DNA of 64,000 bases from Promethearchaeota archaeon (GCA_019058445.1 JAHPZA010000009.1:658355-722354), one strand, 5' to 3'; numbered from the stretch's first letter, positions 24,795 to 53,809 are shown. Notes: generated from the letters alone by a model not told the origin. Made by a program: numbers and translations.

Positions 24795-25682
24795 TTAAAA
24801 TAAAGTCAGAATAAAATCAGCCAAAATGTTCTCAATATTCTTTATTCCCCTTAACCCGGGAAAATCATTTAAATCAACTAAATAAAGCTTGTTGTCTTTA
24901 ACACTTTTAATTAAATCAAATCCAAAAATTTTAAGCTTTAATTCTCTTGAAAGAATTTTTGCTAAAATTTTCATCTCTTTGGGAACCATAAACTCATCCC
25001 TAGAAATTGTATCGACATCTATTGCGTCTGGACTATCTCTCATGTAAATATAAATTGGATTTTCTCTCTTAATTCCAAAGATTTTGTCTCCTACAACGTA
25101 TACTTTACGGTCAATACCATCGCATTCAATGAATTTTTGGACATATACATCGTAATATAAAAAGTTTGAATACATTTTGCAGAATTTATCCACTTCATCA
25201 ATTTCTCTGACTAAAAAATTAAATCTCATATATTTATCGTGCTGAAAATGGCTTTTAATCACAATTGGTAATTTTTTTACTGCCCATTCTTTAAATCTAT
25301 CAACATCTGATAAGTTTTGAGTCCATGACTTAGGCAATGAAATATTCGCTAAAATCTCTGAATTATCCTGAAGAATCTTTCGAAAAGCGTGATCTAAGGC
25401 AACCTTGTTACGCGTTAATAGGACAGTATCAACATCATGCAAAGTGGGGATATCATGAAGTTTTGCGTAATGTAATAAATCTATTGAACATTCACTTCTT
25501 ACTTTTACAATGAGCATATCAACCTTATTGAGTAGGTTTGATGTATTTTCTAAATCAAGAAAATCTTTAGTTGGATCATGTAAGATTAAGTTAGCATCTT
25601 TAGTTTTCTTTTTTAGAATAGGTATAACTGTTTTTATTACATCATGCTCTAATTTCGCAGAAAAAACTACTTTTTTAACCAT
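24795..25682 (-). CDS. ATP-grasp kinase, inositol-tris/tetrakisphosphate kinase (ITPK1)-like
   Basis: RKVYVVGDKIFGIKRE and IFGFDLIKSVKDNKLYLVDLNDFPGLRGI align by eye with human ITPK1 YKVFVVGESYTVVQRP and LFGIDIIINNQTGQHAVIDINAFPGYEGV. Confidence 0.7.
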   Translation of the reverse strand: MVKKVVFSAKLEHDVIKTVIPILKKKTKDANLILHDPTKDFLDLENTSNLLNKVDMLIVKVRSECSIDLLHYAKLHDIPTLHDVDTVLLTRNKVALDHAFRKILQDNSEILANISLPKSWTQNLSDVDRFKEWAVKKLPIVIKSHFQHDKYMRFNFLVREIDEVDKFCKMYSNFLYYDVYVQKFIECDGIDRKVYVVGDKIFGIKRENPIYIYMRDSPDAIDVDTISRDEFMVPKEMKILAKILSRELKLKIFGFDLIKSVKDNKLYLVDLNDFPGLRGIKNIENILADFILTLF

Positions 25683-25772
25683 AATAATTCATAAAAATAT
25701 GCTTATATAGAATAAACACGCAATGTAATATTAACATTTGATTTACTAATACTGAAAAAGTGATATATAATA

Positions 25773-27068
25773 TTGGAAGATATTGATAAAAAAGAAGTGC
25801 TTGATAAGTTACCGAAAAAAGTAAAGAGAACAGCTATAATTGTGGGTTTAATTTTTGCCGGATCACAAATATTCGGTTATTTTGAGGCTAGTTTCTTTAA
25901 CACCTATTTAGACCACGTTTTAAATTTGCCGTATTATTACATTTCCATAATGGTCTCCTTATCTGCAGCGATGGGTCTTGTCATGATGATTGTATGGGGT
26001 ATAAAAAGTGATAACACACGTTCTAAATTCGGGCGTCGTAAACCGTATTTATTTTTTGGTTTTATCATGGGCGTTGCAATGATTGCATTCGCTTTTGCCG
26101 AGAATTTTTTAATGTGTATTATTTTAGATGTGATAGTTATAGGAATTGCGTCTAATGCGTTCTATGTAGCTCAGCGTTCATTTATTCCAGATTTAATCGA
26201 ACCTGAACATCGGGGTAGGGCAAATGGAATCGCAGGTGTTTTTGGAAATATTGGTTTGTTGACAGCAATTGCATTGACAATTATCGCTAATGAGTTATTT
26301 ACGGTAAAAAGAGGTACGGGAAATATCATTACACGGGAGGGACATTTGTTTTTATTTATTATAGGGGGAGGGGGTGTTATGCTTAGTGCCATAATAGGTC
26401 TTCTATTTATATCAGAGCCTTCCCCGTCTGAATTACCCCCCAAAAAAGCCTTTATGCTTGAATTAAAAAAAATGTTTGATTTAGAAGAATTTAGAAGAAA
26501 TAAGCAATTCTATCGGATTGTTTTTGCCCAAACTATCTTTAGAGCCCATATTTATGTGGTATTACCCTTTTTATTCAATTACCTATTCTCTTTAGCACTT
26601 ACTACACTGGAATTCCTATTAGTTGTCATAATTTCTTTTCCGGTAATACTTGGAGTGATGATGATGCTCGGGAAAATTGCGGATAAGTATGGAAGAAAAA
26701 CTTCAATAGTACCTGGTATTCTAATTGCCTGTGTGGGTTTTTTCATGATGCCAATTGCAACATTAACGGGTTATAGATTAATAATATTACTCATCGCAAT
26801 GCCATTGGTGTTAATGGGCTTATTAGGGCTGGATGTACCTCTGAATGCATGGTCGCAAGATCTTTTTCCAGAAGATAAACGGGGTAAATTCATAGGAATT
26901 TTAAATGTGGTTAGTACCATCTCTCAAATAATTGGGGCAACTGTGGGGGGAATAGTAGCCACGCTTTATGGCCTTCCATGGGTTTTTGCTTTTGCTCCTA
27001 TATTTCTAATAGCTTCAATTTTTCTCTTCAAAAGAGTAGAAGAAACTTTGAAATCTAACGATATATAA
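25773..27068 (+). CDS. MFS transporter of the GPH / SLC45-sucrose-transporter-like type, tandem copy 1
   Basis: 12-TM profile. Loop 2-3 signature GIKSDNTRSKFGRRKPYLFFG, like the SD-x(5)-GRRRP motif of GPH/SUT/SLC45 carriers. Confidence 0.75.
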   Translation: MEDIDKKEVLDKLPKKVKRTAIIVGLIFAGSQIFGYFEASFFNTYLDHVLNLPYYYISIMVSLSAAMGLVMMIVWGIKSDNTRSKFGRRKPYLFFGFIMGVAMIAFAFAENFLMCIILDVIVIGIASNAFYVAQRSFIPDLIEPEHRGRANGIAGVFGNIGLLTAIALTIIANELFTVKRGTGNIITREGHLFLFIIGGGGVMLSAIIGLLFISEPSPSELPPKKAFMLELKKMFDLEEFRRNKQFYRIVFAQTIFRAHIYVVLPFLFNYLFSLALTTLEFLLVVIISFPVILGVMMMLGKIADKYGRKTSIVPGILIACVGFFMMPIATLTGYRLIILLIAMPLVLMGLLGLDVPLNAWSQDLFPEDKRGKFIGILNVVSTISQIIGATVGGIVATLYGLPWVFAFAPIFLIASIFLFKRVEETLKSNDI

Positions 27069-27199
27069 CTAATTTTCTTTTTTTTTTATTTTTTATTCTT
27101 TAACCAATTTAAAATCAATAGCTTTATTTGTTTTCTGAATTATTTTCAATTAATTAACACTTTAACCTTTCAAAATAAGTTTAGAAGAGTGAATATATA

Positions 27200-28492
27200 A
27201 TGGAAAAAACTAAGGATCAAAAAGTCTTTACCAAGGAATTAAAGATTCAAACATTCATAATTGGGATTGTGTTTGCTGCTGATATGATTTTCGGTTTTGC
27301 AGAACAAAATTTCCTTAATACCTATCTTGTTCACGTTTTGGGTTTAACAGAACTACATGTTGCAATTATGGTTTCATTATCGGCAATTATGGGACTTATT
27401 TTTCTTCTTGTATGGGGGATCATCTCCGATAATACGCGTTCGAAACATGGAAGAAGAAAACCATATTTGCTTATTGGAGGAATTATTTCTGGAGTGGCAA
27501 TGATTATTTATGCATTTTCCCCTAATTTTTACTGGGCATTATTTCTAGATGTTGTGATAATCGGTATATTTTCTAATGCATATTTCGCGGGTGAAAGAGC
27601 ACTAGTCCCTGATACTATTGAACCAGAATTGCGCGGAAGAGCAAATGGAATTATTCAATCATTTGCTAATTTGGGAATTTTAGTAGCCGTTGCAATTTTT
27701 TTAATATCTTATGAACTGTTTGCAATTGATAATCCAAAAGGTTCTGGAACAATTTTAACTCAAGAGGGTCATTTATTTGTTCTTGGAATAGGAGGTATCG
27801 GTTTCGCGTTATGTGGAATAATTGGATTTGTTTTTATTAAAGAAAAATCGGTTACGGAATTGCCCCCCAAAAAAAAATTCTTTGTTGAGCTTAAAGAAAT
27901 CATAGATATTGAAGAATTTAAGGAACAAAAAGAATTCTATAAAATTACTTTAGCATATTTAATATTTCAAACAGGGATTGGGTGTATCTTACCTTTTCTA
28001 TTCATATATCTATTTGCTTTAGGCCTCACAACCTTAGAACTTTTAATGGCAATCGGTATGGGTTTTCCGATATTAATAATCGTCACAATATTCTTAGGTA
28101 AACTAGCAGATAAACATGGTCGAAAGAAATATATTCCTGCTATAATTGTTATCATCAGTGTTGGCGTATTTTCAACAATTTTCGTGAGAAACGATGCAGG
28201 GGTAAATTTAATCCTGTTTTTTATTCTTCTTCCATTTATTTTAGTGGCTATTTTAGGAGTTCGAGCAATCCTTGATACTTGGTCTCAAGACTTGTTGCCT
28301 CCAGATAAAAGAGGTAAGTTTTTCGGGATCTTAAATATAGTCTTTACACTTTCACAAATAGTAGGCGCTTTAGCAGCAGGATTTATAGCTACTCTTTATG
28401 GATTAGATTGGATCTTTGTTTTAGGAACAGTATTTTTCTTGGTTTCGATTATATTTTTTCTGAGAGTTGAAGAAACTTTAGTAGTTGATTAA
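27200..28492 (+). CDS. MFS transporter of the GPH / SLC45-like type, tandem copy 2
   Basis: Collinear with 25773-27068 (GIISDNTRSKHGRRKPYLLIG, EPELRGRANGI, SELPPKK, WSQDLLPPDKRGKFFGILN). Confidence 0.75.
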   Translation: MEKTKDQKVFTKELKIQTFIIGIVFAADMIFGFAEQNFLNTYLVHVLGLTELHVAIMVSLSAIMGLIFLLVWGIISDNTRSKHGRRKPYLLIGGIISGVAMIIYAFSPNFYWALFLDVVIIGIFSNAYFAGERALVPDTIEPELRGRANGIIQSFANLGILVAVAIFLISYELFAIDNPKGSGTILTQEGHLFVLGIGGIGFALCGIIGFVFIKEKSVTELPPKKKFFVELKEIIDIEEFKEQKEFYKITLAYLIFQTGIGCILPFLFIYLFALGLTTLELLMAIGMGFPILIIVTIFLGKLADKHGRKKYIPAIIVIISVGVFSTIFVRNDAGVNLILFFILLPFILVAILGVRAILDTWSQDLLPPDKRGKFFGILNIVFTLSQIVGALAAGFIATLYGLDWIFVLGTVFFLVSIIFFLRVEETLVVD

Positions 28493-28509
28493 TTCAACTT
28501 ATTTTTTTT

Positions 28510-29487
28510 TTATTTTACTTTTAATATATGTTCTGATAATACTAGGTTTTCCACGGTAAATTTTATATGGTCCTTTATATCTTGTTCTAATATTCGTTCT
28601 AGATCAGGGGAAACAACTATAAATTCTTTTTCTGATAAAGATATCTCATCTTTATAAAGCATATAAAAAGCCTGTTTTAAACCTCTTGGTTCTCGACCCA
28701 TAGGTCCTTTAGTATCATAAAGACCATTCTTTTGCTTATGCAGTTCTTCTTGCAATTTATCTAGTTGCGAATCTTCCCCTTTTAACGCCTTTTGAAACAA
28801 TTCTTTGCAAATATTAGAAATATTACTAATACTTGGCACCAAACCAGAATATTTTCTGAGCTTCATAGGAACAACCTTAAGAAACGCGGAATAATTGTTT
28901 TCATCGCCGCAAAAAACAGCAAAATCTTCGCTGATAAAATCGATGAGCTCTTTAGTATTATTAAGATCATCAGTGGTATCCTTAATGCCTTTTAAATTAT
29001 CGCATTTTAATAAGCTTTTTACAATTTCTCCGTTAATATTGTTTTTGGCAAATCGATACGGGTTATTATAGAGAAAAATCTGATTTTTTAAATTGAGTGA
29101 TTCTAAAATATTTTCGAAATAGATTATCAATTCATTATTAACTAGCCTTTGTGAAATAGGTGGAGTAATTACAAAGTTTAAAGCTTTATACTCTTTACCT
29201 AATAATTCAATTTGATTGATTGTCTCCTCAGTATTATTTCCAAATGCTCCCAAAAGAATAGGGACCTTGTTATCTGAGATTTTAAAGGCCAATTCTACAG
29301 ATTTACGCTTCTCATCAATCTTATCAATAAATTCTATACCCTCACCTGTATTACCAAATAAAAAGAGACTGTCAGCACCATTTAGTAATATATGCCTAAA
29401 TAATAGTGAATTTAATTCATCATTCACTTCAAATTTCTCGTTAAAGAAAGTAATACTAGGGACTATTATACCATTTAGATGTTGCAT
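28510..29487 (-). CDS. DapA/N-acetylneuraminate-lyase family class I aldolase (possibly KDG-aldolase-like)
   Basis: GIIVPSITFFNE...D...L...I..GADSLFLFGNTGEG matches the DHDPS-family N-terminus. Schiff-base lysine context LKGIKDTTDD. Confidence 0.75.
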   Translation of the reverse strand: MQHLNGIIVPSITFFNEKFEVNDELNSLLFRHILLNGADSLFLFGNTGEGIEFIDKIDEKRKSVELAFKISDNKVPILLGAFGNNTEETINQIELLGKEYKALNFVITPPISQRLVNNELIIYFENILESLNLKNQIFLYNNPYRFAKNNINGEIVKSLLKCDNLKGIKDTTDDLNNTKELIDFISEDFAVFCGDENNYSAFLKVVPMKLRKYSGLVPSISNISNICKELFQKALKGEDSQLDKLQEELHKQKNGLYDTKGPMGREPRGLKQAFYMLYKDEISLSEKEFIVVSPDLERILEQDIKDHIKFTVENLVLSEHILKVK

Positions 29488-29527
29488 AATAATATATCCT
29501 CTTTGTTTTTGTAATTTATAATAAAGT

Positions 29528-30553
29528 TTATTTTTTCTGTGGTTCTACAATGATCTTAATCCATTTTTCTCTATCATAATATCTGAACGCATCTACAGCT
29601 TCTTCTAATGTAATTCTTTTAGTAATTAGACTTTCTAAATCTAATTTTTTGCTAGCAATCATATCAAGTGCATCGTCCCAGTAATCTTTATCCGCCTTTG
29701 AATTTACCATTGCCTCAGGATATACTAATTCCACACCTTTTTTTCGGCAATTTACATAAGGTATATATTGCATCTTTTGAGCTCCGAATACAATAACTCG
29801 ATAACCTGATTTAATTATATTAATGGCATCAAGAAGCGTGTCATTATGACCAACCATTTCAAAAACAGCATGCGCTTCACCAAAATTCTTTTTAATCTCA
29901 TCTGCCACTGAGTAATTTCCATGAGTTGCTCTAGAAAATTCATCTGGATTAAACACTTTTGCGCCCCATTTTTTAGCAATATCTCTTTTATGATGGTAAG
30001 GCTCGCTTGCAGCAACCTCAATGTTATTGTTTAATAATATTTTTGTAAGTATTAGTCCTATTGGTCCAAGCCCAATAACTATAGCCTTCTTCTCACCTTC
30101 AATTTTATCAAGTTCAGCTCTCTCATAGCAATTTATTGCACACCCAACAGCATCAGCAAATGAAATCTCGTCCATAGTAAGATCATTTCTTACAATCGGA
30201 ACTCCTCCAGTTAATTCATCTTTCCCATGTCCAACTACATTAACATGAGTAGAATATTCTGCATAACCTTGCCCCATTCTTGCTAAATGATCCCCAACAT
30301 TTATTTTACCCTCTAAATTTTTCCCAACTTCTACGGTAATTGCTCCAGTTTCATGCCCATGTCCTCCCGGCTCATGAGCAATAATCCAATGATCTCCTTC
30401 AAATATCCCTACATCGCTTCCACAAATACCAACAGATATCATTTCGGCCAAAATTTGGTTAGGTTCGGGTTTAGGGATATCGAGCTCTATAAGCTTAACT
30501 ACCCAAGGTTCTGGAAATAACAAGGCTTTCATTTTTCCTTCCATATAACTCAA
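29528..30553 (-). CDS. Zn-dependent medium-chain dehydrogenase/reductase (sugar or polyol dehydrogenase-like)
   Basis: GICGSDVGIFEGDH and GHGHETGA (catalytic Zn ligands). Rossmann VIGLGPIGL. Confidence 0.85.
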   Translation of the reverse strand: MSYMEGKMKALLFPEPWVVKLIELDIPKPEPNQILAEMISVGICGSDVGIFEGDHWIIAHEPGGHGHETGAITVEVGKNLEGKINVGDHLARMGQGYAEYSTHVNVVGHGKDELTGGVPIVRNDLTMDEISFADAVGCAINCYERAELDKIEGEKKAIVIGLGPIGLILTKILLNNNIEVAASEPYHHKRDIAKKWGAKVFNPDEFSRATHGNYSVADEIKKNFGEAHAVFEMVGHNDTLLDAINIIKSGYRVIVFGAQKMQYIPYVNCRKKGVELVYPEAMVNSKADKDYWDDALDMIASKKLDLESLITKRITLEEAVDAFRYYDREKWIKIIVEPQKK

Positions 30554-30589
30554 CTTAAAATTTTTTAGTATTATTTTTAAAGATTTTTA

Positions 30590-33397
30590 TTATCTTCCTC
30601 TAATACCGTCAATTAACATCATTATTAAATCGCCAATACTCAAGGGGAGTCCCCCTCCGTGTTCTTCTTCTTGCGCATTAGGATCAAAGTTTTCGTTTAC
30701 TTTTCTTACCCATTCTAAATAAGATAAGTTCATTAAATCATCAATTTCGTATTCTCTTTTAATAGATTCTGCTATTTCTCCATAATGAGAGAGATTATTT
30801 ACTAAATTCATTTTATCTTTTTTTCCAATAATAACTAATGGTGGTAATGAAAAATGATCTGCAAGAGACTGTACAGATTCAGGAGGTTTATCTCCTTTAT
30901 AGGGTGCGATGATTAAATCAAAATTCAAAGTTTTTCCATTATAAGTTGGTGCTGTTGGTTGGTCTTGATGAGTTAAGAATTTTTCTGCTATTTTATAGGC
31001 ACGACCTGAGCCTGTTGTCCAATAATGTAATATTTTTCCATAATAATTTCCAAAGGGATTAATTCGAACTTGTTGACCCTTTTTATATCCATCTCCAAAC
31101 CCTTTATCTTTAATCTTTAAAGGACTAAAAGCAAAGTTAGATGCTTTTAACGAATTGAATCCTACTAATATACCATTTTTTCTGTCTGAAACAGCCATCC
31201 ATCCATCAGAGATATTACTTACAAGGTTATCTATATTTTTATTCCGAGAATCGACTTCCCGTATATCAAGATCGAAATAAGATACTCTACCTAAAAAATT
31301 TCTTTTCCATATTCTTAATGGTTCATTATTGCCGATAAGATTAGGTTTAATTTCACATGGGATAACTTCTTGCCATCTATTATCATATTTCTCAGCAACA
31401 TAAGCATGACCATCTTCAATAGTACTTTCACCTATGATGTCGCACAACTTCATTTTAACATCCACGAACATCGCTGGAACCCCTGAATATAGGATAAGTA
31501 TTTTTTCTGATTGGACGTCATATCCCCTTAAAATTTCAAATTTACTATAAATTTTAATTGATGCTGAAAATCCATCACTTCCATCTCTCAAAATCTCAAT
31601 CCTATTACGGTTTGAATGATATCTCTTTCCATTTTTTGATTCTCCGAAGGTCACAGCAGATTCTAAAAAATTTGGGCATGCTAAATCTACTCCATTAAAA
31701 TTAAATGAGGTTATTAGACCATTATCATTCAAAATTAATTCTATTATTTCATTTTGCAGAGATCGAATTGTTGCTTTGATTTTTCCGTTATTCTTTAGAT
31801 TGTTAGCTGAATTATTTAATGATAATTTAGAAAGATAGATCTTTTCTGATTCGAATACTTCTTTTGGAACTATAGCTTCAAGAAAAAGCCCATGGTTCGA
31901 ATTGTCATCATATAATCCGTATTTAAAATTTCTTAAATTCAAACCTTTATCATTATTTAATAATTCATTTGATAGTTCCTGAGGGAGTTTTGTTTTTATA
32001 AGAACTGATGAATTAATCTGACTTTTTTCTTGTTCTGTGATGCCCCTGTTTAGTATAGGGCAAATTATCATATTATAATCATTATTTTCAATCCTATTGG
32101 AAATATATTTAAAAGATTCATCGATTGCTAAATTCACAGCATTTTCAGCAGCATTATGAGCTTTTAAAGCGTAAGCCATTCCGGTTTTGATTCTAGTTGG
32201 ATGCATAAAGGGTACAGATAAACCAAAATTTGTAGTAGAAGCGAGTAATATTTTATTTTTAATATATGATTCCGAAGAATCCTTTTCATTGCGAATTAGA
32301 TTATTAATGTTAGCTTTTTTATTTTCTACCATATTTTGAGAAATTAAAGTATCTGAAATGCACTTTTGCCACCTTGCTCTTTGTCCGATTGTCCATAATT
32401 TAGTATTATCATATTTCTGAGCCCAATTGTAAAATCCATTATTAAGCCCATCAGCAGCATCAGGATACAATGTTGTCTCGCCATGAATTTTGAGTTTGGG
32501 GATAACATCTAATAAGTTTGCGAATTCTACGTAATCTAGTAAATCAACCGCTTCAGCAAATTCAATTAAACCTCTTGTTTTAGGCATCCATTGTAAAAAC
32601 TTAGGTAGTTTTTGTGGTAACCACAAATCAACATCCATATCAAAATTGAAGAATAATAGGGCATGTCCTGTGATTTCACCTTTTTCTTGCATTTTTCTTA
32701 TCAATTTAAACCATCTTTTTATCGAAAAATAGTCCACTACATCTCCAAAAGCATACATTGGAATCATTATCATCGAGGCATCGGAAATTGATGAATTGAA
32801 TTTTACTAAACCATATCTCTGATTAGTATTTAACCGCGGATTTAAAAAGGGTCTTCCGACGTCAAAAGGATACACACAATAATAAATGCAAATTCCCTCT
32901 ACACCAATTTTATTATAAAGTTCAATCATTCCTTGAGTAAACATCGTTTCTTGAGTACGGGCGTAAGGTGCAATCCTTCCTGGAAATAACTGTTTCAAAC
33001 CAATTCCCATTTCATTCTCTAAAAACCATTCATGATCGCGAACAAATTCTTCACTATCAAGCATTGGTTTCGCAACATTGCCCCAAGATCCAATTAAAAC
33101 TTCATCTTTTCCTTTTTTACATCGCTCAATTACTCGTTCCAATACATCTTGCTGGTACTCTTGTTGAAGTTGTATAGACCAAAAAGTATCACCGTAATCC
33201 CAAGTAATTTTCATATCTTTAAAAGAAAATCCCTTTTCTTCAATTTCATCTAATTTATCAAGAATAGCTCTCATAGTCGTAAGATCAGTTCCGAAGCCAT
33301 CCCTCCCTCTTGAATCTCCCCGATAAGAATGATAATAATTAATATGGGGAGAGATCACAAAAAATATCTTTTTTTCTTTTAAATCCAATTTATTCAT
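30590..33397 (-). CDS. Large divergent GH57-like glycoside hydrolase / glucanotransferase-like protein
   Basis: By-eye collinearity of the N-terminal ~260 aa with GH57 regions: KIFFVISPHINYYH vs INFIFGIHNHQP; KKGKDEVLIGSWGNVAKPML vs KRGQLEIVVAGFYEPVL; ARTQETMF vs WLTERVW (nucleophile Glu); LLFFNFDMDVDLW vs VAVFHDDGEKFGVW. I do not recognise the ~650-aa C-terminal part. Confidence 0.4.
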   Translation of the reverse strand: MNKLDLKEKKIFFVISPHINYYHSYRGDSRGRDGFGTDLTTMRAILDKLDEIEEKGFSFKDMKITWDYGDTFWSIQLQQEYQQDVLERVIERCKKGKDEVLIGSWGNVAKPMLDSEEFVRDHEWFLENEMGIGLKQLFPGRIAPYARTQETMFTQGMIELYNKIGVEGICIYYCVYPFDVGRPFLNPRLNTNQRYGLVKFNSSISDASMIMIPMYAFGDVVDYFSIKRWFKLIRKMQEKGEITGHALLFFNFDMDVDLWLPQKLPKFLQWMPKTRGLIEFAEAVDLLDYVEFANLLDVIPKLKIHGETTLYPDAADGLNNGFYNWAQKYDNTKLWTIGQRARWQKCISDTLISQNMVENKKANINNLIRNEKDSSESYIKNKILLASTTNFGLSVPFMHPTRIKTGMAYALKAHNAAENAVNLAIDESFKYISNRIENNDYNMIICPILNRGITEQEKSQINSSVLIKTKLPQELSNELLNNDKGLNLRNFKYGLYDDNSNHGLFLEAIVPKEVFESEKIYLSKLSLNNSANNLKNNGKIKATIRSLQNEIIELILNDNGLITSFNFNGVDLACPNFLESAVTFGESKNGKRYHSNRNRIEILRDGSDGFSASIKIYSKFEILRGYDVQSEKILILYSGVPAMFVDVKMKLCDIIGESTIEDGHAYVAEKYDNRWQEVIPCEIKPNLIGNNEPLRIWKRNFLGRVSYFDLDIREVDSRNKNIDNLVSNISDGWMAVSDRKNGILVGFNSLKASNFAFSPLKIKDKGFGDGYKKGQQVRINPFGNYYGKILHYWTTGSGRAYKIAEKFLTHQDQPTAPTYNGKTLNFDLIIAPYKGDKPPESVQSLADHFSLPPLVIIGKKDKMNLVNNLSHYGEIAESIKREYEIDDLMNLSYLEWVRKVNENFDPNAQEEEHGGGLPLSIGDLIMMLIDGIRGR

Positions 33398-33598
33398 TCC
33401 CTAATTATTCATTTGTATGTTATTATAAATGCTATTAAAATTAAAAACATTGATAAAAAAGGATTTGTGAGAGATGATTACCTTTCTTGTGCTATAGAGA
33501 TGCACTATTTCTCTATATAGATTAACCTTTAATTTTTAATTATAATTAAGTCTTATTTGATAAGAGAATTTTATTAATTTTATTAGTTTTATTAAATT

Positions 33599-34360: not shown

Positions 34361-34625
34361 AGGTATAAACTTATAAAAATATTACCGGATAAAACAATTG
34401 ATAAAAGGCTTGAAAAAGAATTTAAAAAAATAAAATAATTTTATTTGAAGATACTAACAAGATATTGAAAGGGTTCTTATTTTTGTTATTTCATTAAGTT
34501 TAAGATTTCGAAATTACCAATCCAATTTAAAATGGTTTAAATATTATAATAAAATATTACACTTTATCATGGCTAACAAGAGATGATTATTTTCTATCAT
34601 TTCTTAATAAAGGAAGGTAAAAAAT

Positions 34626-35678
34626 ATGCCAAATAGGATAAAATTAGCAATAGTGGGAATAGGTAATGCTGCTTCGGCTCTGATTCAAGGCATTGAGTAT
34701 TATAAAGATCGTTCCTTTAATAAGGGTTTGTTATATCCTACATTTGCAGGATATCATATAACTGATATTGAGATCTCTGCTGCATTCGATATTTCTGCTA
34801 ATAAAGTTGGAATGGCTCTTAATGAAGCATTAAAATCCAATGAATTACAAATTATTGTAGACTTAAGTAATCAAGATAAAATTGTCTCAATGGGGGTAGT
34901 TAAAGATGGAATAATTAAAGAGACAATTGGAAAGATTAACCCTTCAAATGCTCCATCTATTAATATAGCAGATAAATTAAGGGATTCGGCTACTGAGATT
35001 GTTCTTTGCCTATTACCATCTGGTGCAGATGAAGCAGTGGAATTCTATGCAAAACAAGCGTTAGATGCCGGTTGTGCTTTTATTAATGCTACTCCAACTT
35101 CAATTGCGACAAACAAAACTTTTGCTAAAAAATATCAAGATGCTGGGCTCCCTCTAATTGGAGACGATCTTCAAGATCAATTTGGAGCAACAATTGTTCA
35201 CAAGCTTCTTTTACAACAGATGATAGATCAAGGAGTTGAAATTAAAGAGAGTTATGCCTTAGATGTTGGGGGAGGATTAGAGTCCTTGAATACAATCTAT
35301 CGAACGCGTCATGTAAAACGGGAAATTAAAAGTAAATCTGTAGCTGCTGCCCTCAAAATAAATGCTCCTATTGTAGCAGGAACTTCTGATTATGTTCCCC
35401 ATTTAGGAAATAGTAGGAATTCCATGTTATGGTTAGTAGGACAAGGTTTTTTAGGGTCAGAAATAATAATGGATATTAAAATCCAGACGCAAGACGGGCC
35501 TAACGGAGGCGCAATTTTGATTGACGTAATTAGAGCCACCAAAATCGCCTTACAACAAGGAGCATCGGGGTCGATAAATGAGATATCAAGTTATGGATTC
35601 AAAAATCCCCCCAGACTGATAAGTAACCCAAAAAAAGCGGGAGAGGACTTAGCAAAATTCATTATGGGGATGATGTAA
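34626..35678 (+). CDS. myo-Inositol-3-phosphate synthase family, paralogue 1 (shortest and most divergent)
   Basis: IKLAIVGIGNAASALIQGIEYYK, LPLIGDDLQDQFGATIVHKLL, DVGGGLESLNT, IKSKSVAAAL and QDGPNGGAILIDVIR are collinear with mycobacterial Ino1 (VGVGNCASSLVQGVEYY, GDDIKSQVGATITHRVLAKLF, NVGGNMDFLNM, SKTQAVTS, DSPNSAGVIIDAVR). Confidence 0.75.
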   Translation: MPNRIKLAIVGIGNAASALIQGIEYYKDRSFNKGLLYPTFAGYHITDIEISAAFDISANKVGMALNEALKSNELQIIVDLSNQDKIVSMGVVKDGIIKETIGKINPSNAPSINIADKLRDSATEIVLCLLPSGADEAVEFYAKQALDAGCAFINATPTSIATNKTFAKKYQDAGLPLIGDDLQDQFGATIVHKLLLQQMIDQGVEIKESYALDVGGGLESLNTIYRTRHVKREIKSKSVAAALKINAPIVAGTSDYVPHLGNSRNSMLWLVGQGFLGSEIIMDIKIQTQDGPNGGAILIDVIRATKIALQQGASGSINEISSYGFKNPPRLISNPKKAGEDLAKFIMGMM

Positions 35679-35683
35679 TAAAG

Positions 35684-36844
35684 ATGAGCAAAACGGATAA
35701 TAGAGAAATACGGGTCGCTATCGCAGGATTAGGTAACGTGGCGGCAGCAATAGTAATGGGTATTGAATACTATAAGAATGTAAAGCAAGAAGAAAAATAT
35801 CAAGCAGGATTGATTAATGCTTCTGTAGGAGGATATTTACCCTCGGATATTAAGATCGTAGCAGCATTCGATATAGCAACAACTAAAATTGGAAAAGATA
35901 TTTCGGAAGCTATTTATGCTGAGCCTAATATGTGCCATCCGATTATACTTCCGGAAAATATGCCAAAATCAAATGCATTATGTTACCCAGGTCCTATTTC
36001 GGATGGGTGTTATCAAACTAAAGACTCAAAGGGAAAAATAATTTTTGACACCTATAACTATTTTAAAGCTTATAATGAAAAAGATGTGAAACCAAGTAAT
36101 ATAACTCAAGTATTACTAGACAATAAAGCACAAATTTTAGTTAATCTACTTCCAGTTGGAAGTTATCAGGCTTCACGAATTTATGCTCAAGCAGCTTTGG
36201 ATGCAAATTGTGCATTAATTAATGGAATTCCTGAATTTATTGTCTCAGAGCAAGTCGAAGGCGATAGAGACTGGGTTGCTGAATTCATAAAAAAAGGTCT
36301 CCCCTGTGCGGGAGATGATATTAAATCTCAAGTTGGAGCAACAATCATACATAGAACACTTGCGAAATTATTCTTAGATCGAGGAGTTATTGTTAATGAT
36401 ACTTATCAATTGAATATAGGGGGAAATGGCGATTTCTATAATATGAAATCAGAAGAACGCCTAACCACAAAACGTAAATCAAAAACATCAGCGGTTACAA
36501 GTGTTCTTCCGTATGGAGATAAAGTTGGTTGTAGAATCGGTCCAAGTGATTATGTGCCATTTTTAGGAGATAAAAAAATCTGTTATATTAGAATTAATGG
36601 AACTACATTTGGAGGGTTACCACTTGTTTGTGATATGAAATTACGTGTTGAAGATTCTCCAAATTCAGCGGGATTAATAATTGATCTTATTCGTCAAACA
36701 AGGTTAGCCATAGATAGGGGGATTGTCGGACGTTTGGACAGTATTAGCTCGTTTAGTTTCAAACATCCACATATTCAACCTTCTTCAGATTTTGAAGCAA
36801 AAAAGTGGGTACAAGAATATATTGAGGGTAAAAGAGAGAGATAA
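35684..36844 (+). CDS. ino1: myo-Inositol-3-phosphate synthase, paralogue 2
   Basis: IRVAIAGLGNVAAAIVMGIEYYK, GDDIKSQVGATIIHRTLAKLFLDRGV, QLNIGGNGDFYNM, KSKTSAVTSVL, EDSPNSAGLIIDLIR, FKHP. Starts 5 nt after paralogue 1. Confidence 0.9.
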   Translation: MSKTDNREIRVAIAGLGNVAAAIVMGIEYYKNVKQEEKYQAGLINASVGGYLPSDIKIVAAFDIATTKIGKDISEAIYAEPNMCHPIILPENMPKSNALCYPGPISDGCYQTKDSKGKIIFDTYNYFKAYNEKDVKPSNITQVLLDNKAQILVNLLPVGSYQASRIYAQAALDANCALINGIPEFIVSEQVEGDRDWVAEFIKKGLPCAGDDIKSQVGATIIHRTLAKLFLDRGVIVNDTYQLNIGGNGDFYNMKSEERLTTKRKSKTSAVTSVLPYGDKVGCRIGPSDYVPFLGDKKICYIRINGTTFGGLPLVCDMKLRVEDSPNSAGLIIDLIRQTRLAIDRGIVGRLDSISSFSFKHPHIQPSSDFEAKKWVQEYIEGKRER

Positions 36845-37009
36845 AAAAAAATTTTTATATCCTATTGATATTTCATAATTTTTTATGAGAGTTCAAATCA
36901 CCAAAAAATGAAGTAAGATCTTTATCGGATTCTATATATTATATAGATTAAAAGCAAGAGCATTTTTTTAAAATGATTTAAATAGGATTATATAATTATA
37001 CCTATTATC

Positions 37010-38101
37010 ATGGCTAATACAATTAATGTTGCCTTAATTGGACTAGGAGATGTAGCCTCTGCATTGGTACAAGGTGTTTCCAATTATAAAAAAAATCCGG
37101 ATAAGATAATTGGTTTACTACCAGAAATTACCCAATATAGTGTTAATGATATTAATTTTGTTGTTGGTTTTGAAGTGAATTCAAATAAAATAGGAAAAGA
37201 TATGAGCGAAGCTATTTTTGCTGAACCTAATTGTAATATGAAATTATACCCTCCTGAGTTCCTAAATGCCCCAATTTTAAGAGGCCCGATCTTAGATGGA
37301 TTAGACAGTAATATTAAGGATATTGTCCCGGTCTCGAATGGAGAAGAAGCTGTTAGCGTATCTAAAGAGATGAAAGATCGATTAGTCGATGTCGCAGTAA
37401 TTCTACTTCCAACAGGAGCACATAAGGCAGTTAAGTTTTATGCCATGGCTGCTCTAGAAGCTGGAGCATGTGTTATTTGTGGTATGCCCTCCCATGTTGC
37501 AAAAAATCCAGAGATTGTTAAAAAAGCCGAAGAATTAAAATTACCATTAATAGGAGATGATGTAAAGTCCCAAATAGGTGCTACTATAATTCATAGATCT
37601 TTAGCAAATCTTTTTCCAATGAGAGGAGCTATATTGGACCGCACAATCCAGCTCGATTGGGGAGGCTGTTCCGATTTTCTAAATCTCTTAACCCCTCAAG
37701 CAGATGGAAAGTTAGTGTATGAAGAAGGGAAGCGTCAATCCAAAACAGAGTCTGTGGTGGCTAAGCTTCAAAATAAAGATACTGTAGAATGCCAAATTTC
37801 GGCAGTAGATTATATTCCTTTCTTAAAAAACCAAAAGGAAGCATATATGAGACTTGAGGGTCGTATTTTTGGAGGTGCTCCTGTTAGAGTGGATATTACA
37901 ATGTTTGTACAAGACGGTAATAATTCTGCTGGCATTATCGCGGACTGCATTCGCATATCTAAGATCGCAAGAGATAGAAAAATAGGCGGAATTCTGTCTT
38001 CAGCATGTTCATTTTTTATGAAACATCCTCCAGAACAATTAGAAGATTATATAGCCAAAAAACATTTGGTAGAATTTATAGAAGGTAATAGAGAAAGATA
38101 A
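37010..38101 (+). CDS. ino1: myo-Inositol-3-phosphate synthase, paralogue 3
   Basis: INVALIGLGDVASALVQGVSNYK, GDDVKSQIGATIIHRSLANLF, QLDWGGCSDFLNL, QSKTESVVAKL, QDGNNSAGIIADCIR, FMKHPPEQL (compare Mtb Ino1 YLMKSPPEQL). Confidence 0.9.
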   Translation: MANTINVALIGLGDVASALVQGVSNYKKNPDKIIGLLPEITQYSVNDINFVVGFEVNSNKIGKDMSEAIFAEPNCNMKLYPPEFLNAPILRGPILDGLDSNIKDIVPVSNGEEAVSVSKEMKDRLVDVAVILLPTGAHKAVKFYAMAALEAGACVICGMPSHVAKNPEIVKKAEELKLPLIGDDVKSQIGATIIHRSLANLFPMRGAILDRTIQLDWGGCSDFLNLLTPQADGKLVYEEGKRQSKTESVVAKLQNKDTVECQISAVDYIPFLKNQKEAYMRLEGRIFGGAPVRVDITMFVQDGNNSAGIIADCIRISKIARDRKIGGILSSACSFFMKHPPEQLEDYIAKKHLVEFIEGNRER

Positions 38102-38144
38102 AATGGGAATTTAAAGAAACTAAATGACAAATTAGCTATATTAT

Positions 38145-39113
38145 TTATGTCATGTACGTTCTTGTCTTTAATCTCATAGGGATTCTTTCATCTATCTTTT
38201 GTCTTGCTATCAAAAATTCATAAATATAGTCAGAGATAAGACTTATCGCTTCAGGAATATTTCTAAAACTGGGGAAGTCATTAATATCTATAATATAAGG
38301 AACACCTTCCTCACTAAAGATGTAATCAATTCCAAAAACAGACATACCAAACTTCTTACTTAATCTCAACACTTTTCTTTTCAATTCTTTATCTATAGGT
38401 ACTCTTATATGTACCATTTCATATGGTGTGAGGGGTCTCTGCTTTATTCTGTTATGGGCAGTTATAGATACCACCCATCGGTCTATTACATATACTTTAT
38501 ATACGATATCTATTTTGCCCAAATAATCTTGGAAGAATAACTCATTTTCATCATAATTTTTAACCAATTCAATGAAATCATTTATATTTCTTGCAATACC
38601 AATAACTCGATCTTCTTTAGGTATATCAGGTGCGTTGTGAATATCATGTTTAATAATTATTTTTACTCCATTACTGCAGGCTAAATAAGCGTCTTTGAGA
38701 GAAAAATATGATTTTGGAATAGGTATTTTTTTATATTTTTCCTCTATACGCTTAAAAGTTGCTTTTCTGCTCTCACAGGTCTGAACTGCTTTTAGGCTAT
38801 TGAGAAGAGGTATTTTTGGGGCATAGATTTTAATAGTATCATATATAATCTGATTTTCCTTTTCAGAAAGTAATTTAACAATGATTAATGAAATTGGATA
38901 CTTTTTTATTTTTTTTCGAAAATATTTAATATCAAAAATTCCTTTTTTATTGCCCTTATGAGGTATGAGATTTACAATTTTGATATTATAGTTAACTTTT
39001 GCAAATTTGATGATCTTCTCAAAAATTTCAAGATCCCTATTGCAAATGGCTCCAATATAGATTTTTTTTATAGACATAAAAAAAAATAAGGGAGTTTGAT
39101 ACCTTAAAAACAA
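38145..39113 (-). CDS. ATP-grasp kinase, ITPK1-like
   Basis: YKVYVIDRWVVSITAHNR and SVFGIDYIFSEEGVPYIIDINDFPSFRNIPE (D-x-N-x-F-P signature). The track start is TTG at 39113; ATG at 39077 (MSIKKIYIG) is more likely. Confidence 0.65.
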   Translation of the reverse strand: MFLRYQTPLFFFMSIKKIYIGAICNRDLEIFEKIIKFAKVNYNIKIVNLIPHKGNKKGIFDIKYFRKKIKKYPISLIIVKLLSEKENQIIYDTIKIYAPKIPLLNSLKAVQTCESRKATFKRIEEKYKKIPIPKSYFSLKDAYLACSNGVKIIIKHDIHNAPDIPKEDRVIGIARNINDFIELVKNYDENELFFQDYLGKIDIVYKVYVIDRWVVSITAHNRIKQRPLTPYEMVHIRVPIDKELKRKVLRLSKKFGMSVFGIDYIFSEEGVPYIIDINDFPSFRNIPEAISLISDYIYEFLIARQKIDERIPMRLKTRTYMT

Positions 39114-39284
39114 ACTATCCTATATAAATATATTTATTATTTTTATTGTAATTCGATTCCAAACTAACAGATTTTTGGTTAAGAATTAGATAGAATTATG
39201 AAAAGTTCTTTTAAAATTATGGAAGATAAGCGAACATTGACTATCCTTGAATTTAAATGAAATAAAATATTATTTAAACAGTCC

Positions 39285-40121
39285 ATGAGTAAAGTTAAGA
39301 TTGGAATAATTATTGATAGATATCATCTAGAGCAAAAAGCAACAGAATTTTTAAAGTACTTAAAATTGGTTGCAAATGTTTCCTTGTATATTGAAGAATC
39401 ATATCTTTTAAAATCTTTTGACTCCACTTTTGATGAGGATTTATTTTTTGTCAAGGGTAAGGGAGATTTAATATTAGCCCTTGTTAAACTCATTGAAAAA
39501 GAGACGTCAATACCGGTAATTAATTCCTATAAAGGAATTTGGAATGCTATACATAGGTTCATGAATAGCGTTTTATTAAAAAAAGCAGGAATCCCTGTGC
39601 CTGATTTTTCGTTGATTCCTAGTGAATATCCACCACCCTTTGAATCATATATTATAAAAAATATTATTGATCAAAAAAATTACAAATTCAAACCGAATAT
39701 TGAAAATATAAATGGAGCTATAAAAGTAAGCGATGAGAGGGCTTTAACGGAGATGTATAATGGATTTTATGGAGACATGGGGAATTATCACTATCTCTAC
39801 TATCAAAAATTTATTAAAAGCGAATGGGAGTATAAGATCTACATTATAGGGGAAGATATTTACTTTTACAAGCAAATACCAGTGCTTGTTAATCCTAATA
39901 AAATGGAGTCAAGGCGAAAGATTGCCGAAATTCCAGAATTAAAAGAATTGGCTTTTAAGGCAGTTAAGACAACCGGATTAAAAATTACATCAATAGATTT
40001 TCTTCAAAATAAAAATGGACAGTTCTTCTTATCGGATATTAATTGTACTCCAAATTTCAATTATATTAAGAATGGTCCAAAAATTGTTGGAGAATATTTA
40101 ATAGAGCAAGCTAAAAAATGA
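39285..40121 (+). CDS. ATP-grasp protein, divergent ITPK1-like
   Basis: EYKIYIIGEDIYFYKQ and LKITSIDFLQNKNGQFFLSDINCTPNFNYI. D-I-N is retained, but F-P-G is replaced by T-P-N. Confidence 0.55.
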   Translation: MSKVKIGIIIDRYHLEQKATEFLKYLKLVANVSLYIEESYLLKSFDSTFDEDLFFVKGKGDLILALVKLIEKETSIPVINSYKGIWNAIHRFMNSVLLKKAGIPVPDFSLIPSEYPPPFESYIIKNIIDQKNYKFKPNIENINGAIKVSDERALTEMYNGFYGDMGNYHYLYYQKFIKSEWEYKIYIIGEDIYFYKQIPVLVNPNKMESRRKIAEIPELKELAFKAVKTTGLKITSIDFLQNKNGQFFLSDINCTPNFNYIKNGPKIVGEYLIEQAKK

Positions 40122-40130
40122 TTTAAAGAA

Positions 40131-40946
40131 ATGACTATGAAGATTGGGATACTCTCAAAAAAAACTACTGGCATGACGGGTTTGATGAGAGAATTTTTTG
40201 AAAATGCGGGACACACTGTGAAAATATATACATTGAAAGATTTATGCATAAATGAAGCACTGTTTGAAAATGATTTTTATGTACTTAAATCAAAAAAAAT
40301 AGTGTATATCTATGCTGGTCATTACTTAGAGAAAAATAATATTCCCGTAATTCCAAATCCAAATACCATTTATAATAATAAAAATCGTATAGAGGCACAT
40401 TATTTAATTAAGCAAACAGGCTTAAGGCTGCCCGAATTTTATTATGGAAAAGTCCAAACTTTAAAAGATCAACTTAAAGCAGATGATTTTCCTTTAATTT
40501 TAAAACCAATTATGGGTTCTGGGAGTAGAGGCATAAAAAAAGTAATTTCATTTGACGATTTAGAGCCGAAAAATGATCAACCATTATACTTAGAAAAATA
40601 TATAGAAGGAACTCATTATTTGGTGTATTTTATTGAAAATCAGGTATGCATTTTAGAAAAACCTCCGCTATCAAATGAACATGTAGAAATGAAGAAAATT
40701 TTACTGAATGACAATAATGAAGATATCCAAGAGGTTGTAATCAAATGGAAATCTTATTATAATCTACAATTTGGCCATTTAGATATTGTAAGAGAAGACA
40801 ATACCAATAAAATTTATCTTGTAGATCCGGGTTCTTTTCCCGAATTCTCAAATTGGTGGTATGATGAGAATCCCACACCTAAAATCTGTAATCTTATATT
40901 AAAAAGATATGAAGATTTAAAACATAATAATCATAAAAATATCTGA
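40131..40946 (+). CDS. ATP-grasp protein (generic RimK/ITPK-like); terminal metal-site motif altered
   Basis: PLILKPIMGSGSRGIKKV (ATP-grasp phosphate loop), LYLEKYIEG, and FGHLDIVREDNTNKIYLVDPGSFPEFSN (D-P-G where the others have D-x-N). Starts 9 nt after the previous ORF. Confidence 0.6.
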   Translation: MTMKIGILSKKTTGMTGLMREFFENAGHTVKIYTLKDLCINEALFENDFYVLKSKKIVYIYAGHYLEKNNIPVIPNPNTIYNNKNRIEAHYLIKQTGLRLPEFYYGKVQTLKDQLKADDFPLILKPIMGSGSRGIKKVISFDDLEPKNDQPLYLEKYIEGTHYLVYFIENQVCILEKPPLSNEHVEMKKILLNDNNEDIQEVVIKWKSYYNLQFGHLDIVREDNTNKIYLVDPGSFPEFSNWWYDENPTPKICNLILKRYEDLKHNNHKNI

Positions 40947-40975
40947 ACCAATTACTAAAAAGGATTCGTACTATT

Positions 40976-41956
40976 TTGAATGACCCAGATAAGTTACAGG
41001 ATTTAGAATTTAAGTCCATAACTGATATGTTTGGAAAGCAAAAAGTTAGACTTTATAAAATAAAACATATTATCTTCGACTTTGGAGGGGTAATGATAGA
41101 AAAAACATTTGTTTTAAAGAATCTGTTTGACATTATTGAAGCTGACTTAAAGCTTTCAATACCTCGTACAGAAGATTCCTATTTTAGAAAACTACGAAGG
41201 CAAGTGAGCTCTGGAATCATATCTTCTCGAGAATTTTTAGAAAAAATGCTAGAAAAATATTATTATCCATTTTTGAAAAATGATGGGGCATTACCGGCAA
41301 AAAGGGCAAATGTCGATTATTATTTAGAGCTCTGGTTCCAGATTTATACAGTAGTTACAAAATTTTCAAAAGATATGGCCGAAATAATTGAAAGATTTCA
41401 TCAGGCCGGTTATATTGTAAGTTTAATGTCCAATACATACGATATTCATGCAAGATCAAATGAATTGAGGGGTTTTTATGATGCTTTTGATAATGTATAT
41501 CTCTCAAGTGAAATAGGGCTTATTAAACCCAATATCGAGAAATACAAATATGTTTTATCAAAATTAAATACGGAACCTAAAAAATGTATATTTATTGATG
41601 ATAAGCTTGTAAATCTTATCCCAGCACGTGAGTTAGGAATCATTGTTATTAGATTTGAGTCATTAGAAAAATTTAAAAAGCAATTGAACCAAATAGGGAT
41701 AAAAAAACTCAGACCTAATCTTAGGCATGAAATAAAAAAAAAGTATAAAAAATATAAAAAGGTTAAAAAGTCTTATAAAAAAGCGAAACGAGCATACAAA
41801 AAGGCTAGGAAAGAATTCTTAAAAAAGAAGAGAAAATCCTCCAAAAGACATAGAGAATTTCGAAGAAGATATGCCGAATATAGGAAGAAAAAACAGGAAT
41901 ATAAAGAAGAAAAAAAGAAAAAGAAGGAATTAATCTCCAAAGTTAGTATTGCTTAA
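40976..41956 (+). CDS. HAD-superfamily hydrolase (subfamily IA-like) with a ~90-aa polybasic C-terminal extension
   Basis: Motif I IIFDFGGVMI (Gly at the Asp+2 position), motif II LMSNT, motif III GLIKPN, motif IV FIDDK. Tail is KKKYKKYKKVKKSYKKAKRAYKKARKEFLKKKRKSSKRHREFRRRYAEYRKKKQEYKEEKKKKKE. Confidence 0.8.
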   Translation: MNDPDKLQDLEFKSITDMFGKQKVRLYKIKHIIFDFGGVMIEKTFVLKNLFDIIEADLKLSIPRTEDSYFRKLRRQVSSGIISSREFLEKMLEKYYYPFLKNDGALPAKRANVDYYLELWFQIYTVVTKFSKDMAEIIERFHQAGYIVSLMSNTYDIHARSNELRGFYDAFDNVYLSSEIGLIKPNIEKYKYVLSKLNTEPKKCIFIDDKLVNLIPARELGIIVIRFESLEKFKKQLNQIGIKKLRPNLRHEIKKKYKKYKKVKKSYKKAKRAYKKARKEFLKKKRKSSKRHREFRRRYAEYRKKKQEYKEEKKKKKELISKVSIA

Positions 41957-53774: not shown

Positions 53775-53809
53775 TTTGATTCTAACTCTCAGAAATTATC
53801 ATTTTTAGC

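Follow-up and report, generated by a model that had tools for sequence, protein, structure and literature searches.

Genes for inositol-phosphate synthases and ITPK1-like kinases share a conserved locus in Loki-type Asgard archaea

We analyzed a 64,000-nucleotide stretch of DNA from a Promethearchaeota archaeon (GCA_019058445.1, JAHPZA010000009.1:658355-722354), hereafter the window, in which genes of the myo-inositol-1-phosphate synthase (MIPS) family lie next to genes for ATP-grasp enzymes, some of which resemble the inositol phosphate (InsP) kinase ITPK1 (Table 1). The three MIPS genes (MIPS1, MIPS2, and MIPS3), the four ATP-grasp genes (AGA, AGB, AGC, and AGD) and the HAD hydrolase gene are all located exactly where an earlier note on this DNA had placed them, and the gaps of 9 and 29 nucleotides (nt) that it reported for the operon-like AGC-AGD-HAD arrangement are correct. 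The mechanically defined open reading frame (ORF) of AGB starts from a TTG codon that precedes the ATG at 39077 (MSIKKIYIG...) by 36 nt; because the orthologues begin at this ATG and the 322-residue version that starts at the TTG was not found in the protein collection, the ATG is probably the true start. The nearest species representatives of the window are metagenome-assembled genomes (MAGs) of Promethearchaeota (Loki-type Asgard archaea). As detailed below, the window contains a genuine cluster that joins inositol-phosphate synthase genes to genes for ITPK1-like kinases and is strongly conserved among Loki-type Asgard archaea.

Table 1. Genes of the cluster and its immediate neighbor, with predicted products
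Feature	Position	Strand	Basis
AGA, predicted ITPK1-family ATP-grasp kinase, conserved core member	24795-25682	-	Pfam Ins134_P3_kin
Two tandem MFS transporters	25773-27068, 27200-28492	+	Pfam MFS_1
DHDPS-family protein (accessory block)	28510-29487	-	Pfam
Zn-dependent dehydrogenase (Zn-ADH; accessory block)	29528-30553	-	Pfam
935-residue protein of unknown family (accessory block)	30590-33397	-	
SDR (accessory block)	33599-34360	+	Pfam
MIPS1, divergent MIPS paralogue	34626-35678	+	Pfam Inos-1-P_synth
MIPS2, canonical myo-inositol-1-phosphate (Ins3P) synthase	35684-36844	+	Pfam Inos-1-P_synth
MIPS3, MIPS of the conserved core, LDWGG-x-x-DF subfamily	37010-38101	+	Pfam Inos-1-P_synth
AGB, predicted distant ITPK1-family ATP-grasp kinase	38145-39077 (ORF extends to 39113)	-	Pfam Ins134_P3_kin
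AGC, divergent ATP-grasp, predicted AGA paralogue, first gene of the AGC-AGD-HAD operon	39285-40121	+	Profile comparison
AGD, LysX/ArgX-like ATP-grasp with altered Mg2+ motif	40131-40946	+	Pfam ATP-grasp_3
HAD-IA hydrolase with 78-residue polybasic C-terminal tail	40976-41956	+	Pfam Hydrolase
BacA-type polyprenyl-diphosphate phosphatase, convergent with AGA	23934-24791	+	Pfam BacA, 1.9e-47

The conserved core of the cluster consists of AGA, MIPS3, AGB, and AGC-AGD(-HAD), organized in four divergent or convergent transcription units. Five genome loci, including the one on the 2.27-Mb contig CP070805.1, carry this core in identical order: an HHH-FKBP gene, followed by HAD, AGD, and AGC in one operon, then AGB, a MIPS gene encoding 363-364 residues, AGA, BacA, LMWPc, and isochorismatase. 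Moreover, when the AGA alignment was used to scan metagenomes, 80 loci anchored on AGA were obtained; when only those loci whose contig extends far enough are counted, AGB follows MIPS3 in 26 of 26, AGC is present in 18 of 18, and AGD in 15 of 15. All loci examined have a MIPS3 orthologue, 77-88% identical, beside AGA and AGB. The conservation of the neighborhood, on which the earlier note had made its reading depend, is thus apparent both in the five genome loci and in the metagenome loci, and the conserved core supports the proposal that, in an Asgard archaeon, a MIPS gene is tied physically and evolutionarily to ITPK1-family ATP-grasp kinases. BacA adjoins AGA in most of the genome and metagenome loci and is probably a neighbor only, outside the module. 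Syntenic, near-identical loci from NCBI MAG records (L083-L086) bear the labels Hodarchaeota, Thorarchaeota, Lokiarchaeota, and Hermodarchaeota; these phylum labels look unreliable and do not show that the module extends beyond Loki-type genomes.

The slot between AGA and MIPS3 is empty in 25 metagenome loci and holds an MFS transporter in about 10, and combinations of the 935-residue protein, the Zn-dependent dehydrogenase, the DHDPS-like protein, and an MFS transporter occupy it in at least 12 of the 80. The first gene upstream of AGA encodes an MFS transporter in 23 of 47 metagenome loci, and MFS2 of the window is 57% identical to the transporter located between AGA and MIPS3 in L084. Because the same gene combinations recur in this slot across metagenome loci, the insertion in the window represents a recurrent accessory set and not a one-off event; the block is absent from CP070805.1. 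The 935-residue protein, for which neither Pfam nor NCBIfam gave a match up to E<=10, may be an uncharacterized accessory enzyme of the module. The MIPS1-MIPS2 pair occupies the slot in a few close relatives (L094, L097, L101, L001, and L002) and is located elsewhere among unrelated housekeeping genes; MIPS1 lies 5-40 nt upstream of MIPS2 in every case, and the tandem is conserved in L001-L008 (Loki-type and Hod-labelled genomes). Thus, a separately conserved gene pair has moved into the AGA-MIPS3 slot in this lineage, and the presence of three MIPS genes at the locus is lineage-specific.

With respect to the kinases, both AGA (52.8 bits, 4.7e-14) and AGB (24.7 bits, 1.9e-5) exceed the cut-off (23) of the Pfam family Ins134_P3_kin (PF05770), for which the Pfam scan gave no match in AGC or AGD; the Pfam N-terminal ITPK1 domain did not match AGA or AGB. 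When family profiles were compared with the sequences of the PDB, AGA retrieved ITPK1 and ITPK4 (5.5e-10 to 2.7e-5) ahead of the Vip1 kinase (8e-3) and RimK (0.1), and AGB retrieved ITPK1/ITPK4 only (1.1e-4), with no ligase below E=1. Profile alignment by hhalign to human ITPK1 gave probabilities of 94% for AGA and 93% for AGB; the numbering of the human sequence used for alignment reproduced all residues quoted in the 2019 study of the Lokiarchaeum homologues (Desfougères et al., 2019; PMC6900528). In AGA, residues K60, H148, K193, R206, D256, D270, and N272 correspond to human K59, H162, K199, R212, D281, D295, and N297; human H167 has no aligned counterpart, and an invariant arginine (R153) is found five residues after H148. 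AGB keeps K68, K194, D251, D264, and N266 (human K59, K199, D281, D295, and N297), its position equivalent to human G301 is a serine, and the other contacts fall in gapped regions. The D-(I/L)-N-x-F-P motif, previously attributed to at least two of the ATP-grasp genes, is indeed present in AGA (LVDLNDFPG) and AGB (IIDINDFPS) but not in AGC (DINCTPN) or AGD (VDPGSFPE), and the accompanying strand YKV(F/Y)V(V/I)G is matched at six of seven positions in each of the former (KVYVVG in AGA, YKVYVID in AGB). AGA has more than 450 homologues, 59-89% identical among the 120 matches listed, and those with names come from Asgard MAGs. By these criteria, we assign only AGA and AGB to the ITPK1 family.

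The other two ATP-grasp proteins are more divergent. AGC has no Pfam family above the cut-off, its hits to Ddl and RimK being sub-threshold, and AGD matches Pfam ATP-grasp_3 (2.9e-5). In cross-family profile searches at equal database size, AGA finds AGB at 2e-10, AGC finds AGA at 2.5e-7 and AGD at 3.8e-7, and AGD finds AGC at 2.2e-6; the corresponding hhalign values are 98% for AGA-AGB, 97.7% for AGA-AGC, 96% for AGC-AGD, and 9% for AGB-AGD. Because of these values, the four families appear to form a chain, or graded series, that runs from AGB through AGA, AGC, and AGD to LysX/ArgX. AlphaFold2 (AF2) models of AGC and AGD are confident, with predicted local distance difference test (pLDDT) values of 89.7 and 91.2, respectively, and a Foldseek search with AGC recovered LysX/ArgX (2.5e-15), PPIP5K2 (5e-14), and the maize enzyme ZmITPK1 (2e-13) without separating the families. 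When mapped via AGA, AGC keeps only K57 and K184 (human K59 and K199) among the contact residues, together with D238, D251, and N253, and AGD retains a glycine-rich ATP loop of the ligase type (KPIMGSGSRG). AGC is best described as a divergent AGA paralogue, and AGD appears closest to the LysX/ArgX ligases. Neither protein, as judged from sequence, is a standard-looking ligase, because, in HMMER alignments, AGC has KMES in place of the R-x-N-x-x-x-G-G segment that RimK, LysX, and ArgX conserve and AGD has a deletion there, and the ligase scores in NCBIfam are far below the cut-offs: for rimK_fam (cut-off 143.4), AGC scores 48.7, AGD 36.4, and AGB 26.6 bits, with no hit for AGA, and the LysX_arch scores are 22-32 bits against a cut-off of 275.6. 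AGA matches a single NCBIfam family, MptN, and with 36.8 bits stays below its cut-off of 350.

All three MIPS proteins exceed the cut-off (27) of Pfam Inos-1-P_synth, with 58.8 bits (7.1e-16) for MIPS1, 110.7 bits (4.9e-32) for MIPS2, and 74.3 bits (1.1e-20) for MIPS3, and none reaches the actinobacterial equivalog TIGR03450 (252, 328, and 298 bits, respectively; cut-off 638). Their pairwise identity is 31-42% (31-36% for MIPS1 against the other two), and by sequence they fall into three distinct orthologue groups. MIPS2 matches Mycobacterium tuberculosis Ino1 (1GR0) at 8.9e-83 and, of about 95 positions with complete or near-complete conservation in 72 bacterial and archaeal MIPS2-type homologues, keeps nearly all, the few differences lying outside the motifs discussed here; the full Lys/Asp set and the GDD-x-KS, GGN-x-DF, and DSPNSAG motifs are retained. 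MIPS3, which matches Ino1 at 5e-82, differs at about 20 of these positions, its motifs reading LDWGGCSDF and DGNNSAG, and retains the Lys/Asp catalytic set. Its closest relatives in a library of 1.84 billion proteins share the LDWGG-x-x-DF (LDWGG[D/G]) and D-x-x-NSAG motifs, and the gene for one such subfamily member, P0385, lies near CarS and overlaps with a gene for a CDP-alcohol phosphatidyltransferase. Given the shared motifs, this gene overlap, the retained Lys/Asp set, and the match to Ino1, MIPS3 is probably a true MIPS that belongs to another subfamily. Neofunctionalization of MIPS3, considered on account of the roughly 20 differing positions, was rejected since the motifs are common to a wider MIPS subfamily. 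Outside Asgard archaea, LDWGG-x-x-DF MIPS proteins (L087, 10001-11676; L089; P0386) occur in several contexts, one with the gene overlap just described, one beside methyltransferases and a sugar ABC transporter, and another fused to a methyltransferase domain.

The HAD protein matches Pfam Hydrolase (54.7 bits, 2.3e-14) and HAD_2 (43.2 bits), and its best NCBIfam matches, both below the respective cut-offs, are the HAD-1A3 family that resembles the N-terminal domain of sEH (3e-21) and the glucose-1-phosphatase YihX (2.4e-15). Motif I reads FDFGGV, with the nucleophilic aspartate present and a glycine at D+2. The polybasic tail that had been noticed earlier is real: it spans residues 249-326 approximately, with 40 lysines and arginines among its 78 residues and a net charge of +32. 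The tail is found in all five HAD orthologues examined, with 78-79 residues, 37-40 lysines and arginines, a net charge of +28 to +32, and a KKYKKYKK...EYKKAKK pattern. Because 4 of 10 loci lack the gene although they are complete in other respects, HAD is an optional member of the module. The loci that lack it include L112, L118, L128, and L141.

The reading that we favor, with a probability of roughly 0.6, is the soluble InsP route already published for Lokiarchaeum (Desfougères et al., 2019; PMC6900528), for which an exact parts list now becomes available. Under this scenario, MIPS2, and probably MIPS3, would cyclize glucose-6-phosphate to Ins3P, which AGA and AGB would then phosphorylate at the expense of ATP to higher inositol phosphates without a lipid intermediate; AGA and AGB keep the metal ligands of ITPK1 and, as far as they align, most of its InsP-contact residues. 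AGC and AGD, as constant companions, most likely extend or modify the product, and the YihX-like HAD, where present, would remove a phosphate, with its tail of about +30 charges holding the enzyme on a polyanion, such as InsPs, polyphosphate, nucleic acid, or an acidic membrane. MIPS1 may be a pseudo-enzyme partner or a subunit of a hetero-oligomer.

Several observations weigh against this scenario. First, the similarity of AGA and AGB to ITPK1 detected in direct searches lies mostly within the C-terminal 60-120 residues. Second, AGC and AGD score as closer to LysX/ArgX/RimK/PurK than to ITPK1: the best PDB match of the AGC family profile is ArgX (2.2e-4), with no match to ITPK1, and the AGD profile finds PurK (2.9e-7) and ArgX (2.3e-6) long before ITPK1 (0.045); in Foldseek, the top hits of AGD are ArgX and LysX, with template-modeling (TM) scores of 0.72-0.77, and ITPK1 is not among the top 50. 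Furthermore, of the contact residues AGD has only K53 (human K59), with L164 at the K199 position, and although D218 and D232 are kept, the asparagine equivalent to N297 is replaced by G234, resulting in D-P-G in place of D-x-N, a change that is invariant in 42 homologues. Third, MIPS1 shows fixed changes at invariant positions, among them K214Q, D250E, F251S, K298R, S325G, S328G, and A329G, and reads GDDLQDQ instead of GDD-x-KSQ; the substituted positions presumably match catalytic residues of the yeast and A. fulgidus enzymes. Fourth, the HAD gene is present in 6 of the 10 metagenome loci with room for it, and in the other four an FKBP gene abuts AGD across a gap of 84 nt. Fifth, none of the window ORFs scanned matched the IPK/IPMK or InsP5 2-kinase family. 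Finally, the rescue of yeast by the Lokiarchaeum homologue LcIKC was partial and depended on downstream yeast kinases (PMC6900528).

These observations narrow what had been claimed for the locus. The description of all four ATP-grasp proteins as ITPK1-like holds for AGA and AGB, whereas AGC and AGD score as LysX/ArgX/RimK/PurK-type proteins by both sequence and fold; in other words, the better match to RimK-, LysX-, or GshB-type ligases that the earlier note named as grounds for abandoning its reading is found for half of the set and not for the other half. Likewise, the three MIPS-family genes are confirmed by Pfam but are not equivalent enzymes of the committed step, given the substitutions of MIPS1 at catalytic positions. 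The notion of a self-contained pathway, in particular one to InsP6, is not supported, as the HAD gene is dispensable and neither the IPK nor the InsP5 2-kinase family is represented among the window ORFs scanned.

The ligase-like features of AGC and AGD could alternatively point to a conjugated cyclitol metabolite, an explanation that we consider possible but unlikely. In such a pathway, MIPS3 would provide an inositol phosphate, AGA and AGB would phosphorylate it once or twice, and AGC and AGD would be true ligases of the LysX/ArgX/RimK type that join an amino acid or a peptide to a partner carrying a carboxylate, with the HAD removing an activating phosphate and the MFS transporter exporting or importing the product. 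The best sequence and fold matches of AGC and AGD, which are LysX/ArgX, RimK, Ddl, and PurK, and the glycine-rich loop of AGD, typical of ligases, are compatible with this possibility, but AGC comes closer to AGA (2.5e-7) than to the ligases of solved structure (2.2e-4 at best), neither AGC nor AGD has an intact R-x-N-x-x-x-G-G segment, and all ligase-family scores are far below the curated cut-offs. At the level of gene content, the frequent MFS transporter in the locus and the location of MIPS3-subfamily members elsewhere beside tailoring enzymes, such as methyltransferases, have to be set against the absence of a LysW-like carrier or any amino-acid biosynthesis gene from the conserved core of the five genome loci.

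A bolder version of the kinase scenario, which we regard as rather improbable, is that the four co-inherited ATP-grasp proteins record the origin of InsP kinases from amino-acid ligases via tandem duplication and, together with the HAD, make a product that is new to prokaryotes. Candidates for such a product might be highly phosphorylated or pyrophosphorylated inositols, or phosphoinositide-like archaeal lipids; the pyrophosphorylated inositols are considered because the folds of AGC and AGD are as similar to PPIP5K as to ITPK1.

A dedicated role in lipid head groups is quite doubtful. MIPS3 would in this case feed the synthesis of archaetidylinositol-phosphate, the ATP-grasps would turn archaetidylinositol into phosphoinositide-like lipids by phosphorylation, and the HAD would be a membrane-docked archaetidylinositol-phosphate phosphatase. 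Capped HAD-IA enzymes usually act on small soluble substrates, and the absence of the HAD from 4 of 10 loci is also at odds with such a role, even though its tail (net charge about +30, periodic Tyr-Lys-Lys) could bind acidic membranes. The overlap of P0385 with a CDP-alcohol phosphatidyltransferase gene near CarS connects the MIPS3 subfamily to lipid synthesis, and the BacA polyprenyl-diphosphate phosphatase is a constant neighbor of the Asgard core, but no CDP-alcohol phosphatidyltransferase is encoded in or near this core in the five genome loci, and the Pfam scan gave no match to a membrane-associated or lipid-binding family for the four ATP-grasps or the HAD core. According to a 2026 preprint, no archaetidylinositol kinases or phosphatases are known, which would favor candidates of this kind, but the known ITPK1 enzymes use soluble substrates (PMC6900528).

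That the genes are mere neighbors held together by conserved chromosomal context, the ATP-grasps being protein- or cofactor-modifying ligases unrelated to inositol, is highly improbable: the whole 64-kb region, including the EF-2, proteasome, and FKBP housekeeping genes, is collinear between genomes, so that synteny alone is weak evidence within this clade, and NCBI annotates all four ATP-grasps as 'RimK family', but AGA and AGB are specifically ITPK1-like, the insertions and rearrangements around the core and in the AGA-MIPS3 slot never remove a core member, an extra MIPS pair was recruited into the locus in this lineage, and LcIKC shows InsP-related activity in yeast (PMC6900528).

The soluble InsP route agrees with the earlier work on Lokiarchaeum, in which four ITPK1 homologues (LcIKA-D) flanking inositol-phosphate-synthase (IPS) genes were described, LcIKC was found to restore InsP6 partly in plc1-delta yeast, ITPK1 was shown to phosphorylate Ins3P, and Ins3P was inferred to feed a soluble InsP route (Desfougères et al., 2019; PMC6900528). 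The cluster in the window corresponds to that locus and is its Lokiarchaeial version; the statement that no arrangement of this kind had been described is accordingly incorrect, the core having been published in 2019. Two contigs, LAZR01005205.1 and LAZR01001692.1 (L119 and L137), each carry AGB-MIPS3-AGA, and a LAZR accession is cited alongside the Lokiarchaeum genome; these two sets fit the description of two pairs that flank two IPS genes, which suggests that the four LcIK genes are two of the AGA type and two of the AGB type. Arg156 of LcIKC fits the AGB type, although the orthologue assignment of LcIKC is uncertain. The main text of the 2019 paper is silent on AGC, AGD, the polybasic HAD, the MFS/935-residue block, and the MIPS paralogy, and we found no later biochemical study in the literature. 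In a 2026 preprint, the Asgard sequences are again sister to eukaryotic ITPK1, which is one of the few inositol-phosphate signaling enzymes whose history reaches back to the eukaryotes' archaeal ancestor (PMC6900528; 2026 preprint).

As the basic idea has already been published, the added value of the present analysis lies in the exact parts list and in the correction of which genes are ITPK1-like. The archaeal ITPK1 relatives are not isolated homologues but belong to a five-gene module that is fixed throughout Loki-type genomes. The module comprises two clear relatives of ITPK1, its own dedicated MIPS, and two other ATP-grasps, and its proteins thus form a defined set. The module leads to the prediction that soluble InsP2 or higher inositol phosphates are made from glucose in Lokiarchaeia.

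Beyond the core, the window is collinear with CP070805.1 over the whole 64 kb and differs from it by insertions, namely an acyltransferase gene (22283-23770), the block at 25773-36844, a CotH-like gene, and a purple-acid-phosphatase-like gene. The CotH-kinase-like protein (41989-43275, minus strand), which has an N-terminal transmembrane segment, is encoded between HAD and HHH-FKBP, and its gene is absent from the CP070805.1 locus and from the other four genome loci. The purple-acid-phosphatase-like protein (45075-46544, plus strand), with Pur_ac_phosph_N and Metallophos domains and hydrophobic N-terminal helices, is encoded by a gene inserted between HHH-FKBP and a radical-SAM gene, at a distance of 3 kb from the cluster; phytases are known among the plant members of the purple-acid-phosphatase family. 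At 52248-56101, a gene for a corrinoid (B12-binding) protein is flanked by two MttB-family methyltransferase genes, an arrangement that indicates the metabolism of methylated amines, or a related kind of methyl transfer, in this Asgard archaeon.

The module can be compared with several characterized systems. With eukaryotic ITPK1 (human 2Q7D, maize 7TN5, potato 8OXE, and Entamoeba 1Z2N), its kinase-like proteins have the ATP-grasp fold in common; AGA and AGB share the D-x-N metal site and the equivalents of K199 and K59, and AGA additionally those of R212 and H162. In contrast to the eukaryotic enzymes, AGA and AGB show similarity in direct searches largely in the C-terminal third, without a match to the N-terminal domain or a counterpart of H167, and AGB has a serine in place of G301. 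The kinase domain of PPIP5K/Vip1 (3T9C, 9GR8), likewise an ATP-grasp InsP kinase, is among the top Foldseek hits of both AGC (5e-14) and AGD, but neither protein matches it significantly in sequence, and both lack the histidine-phosphatase domain. The LysX/ArgX/RimK ligases (5K2M, 3VPB, 3VPD, and 4IWX) are the best fold matches of AGC and AGD, with TM scores of 0.7-0.77, and share the glycine-rich ATP loop with AGD, whereas sequence identity is 15-19%, the rimK_fam scores are 36-49 bits against 143, and no gene for a LysW-like carrier is nearby.

The HAD has its closest characterized counterparts among the HAD-IA phosphatases of the Escherichia coli YihX type, matching the NCBIfam glucose-1-phosphatase family at 56.7 against an equivalog cut-off of 295. 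Motif I of YihX, FDLGNV, also has a glycine at D+2, and the 78-residue polybasic tail is not known as a feature of YihX. The archaeal operon for MIPS and archaetidylinositol-phosphate synthase encodes a MIPS that shares the LDWGG-x-x-DF motif with MIPS3, but its partner is a lipid synthase, whereas the partners of MIPS3 in the Asgard core are ATP-grasps. Finally, in the LcIKA-D/IPS locus of Lokiarchaeum, the ITPK1 homologues likewise flank the IPS genes, and the two LAZR contigs carry AGB-MIPS3-AGA as does the core of the window; compared with the four ITPK1 homologues and two IPS genes described for Lokiarchaeum, the locus in the window has three genes of the MIPS family and contains additional genes that amount to about 9 kb.

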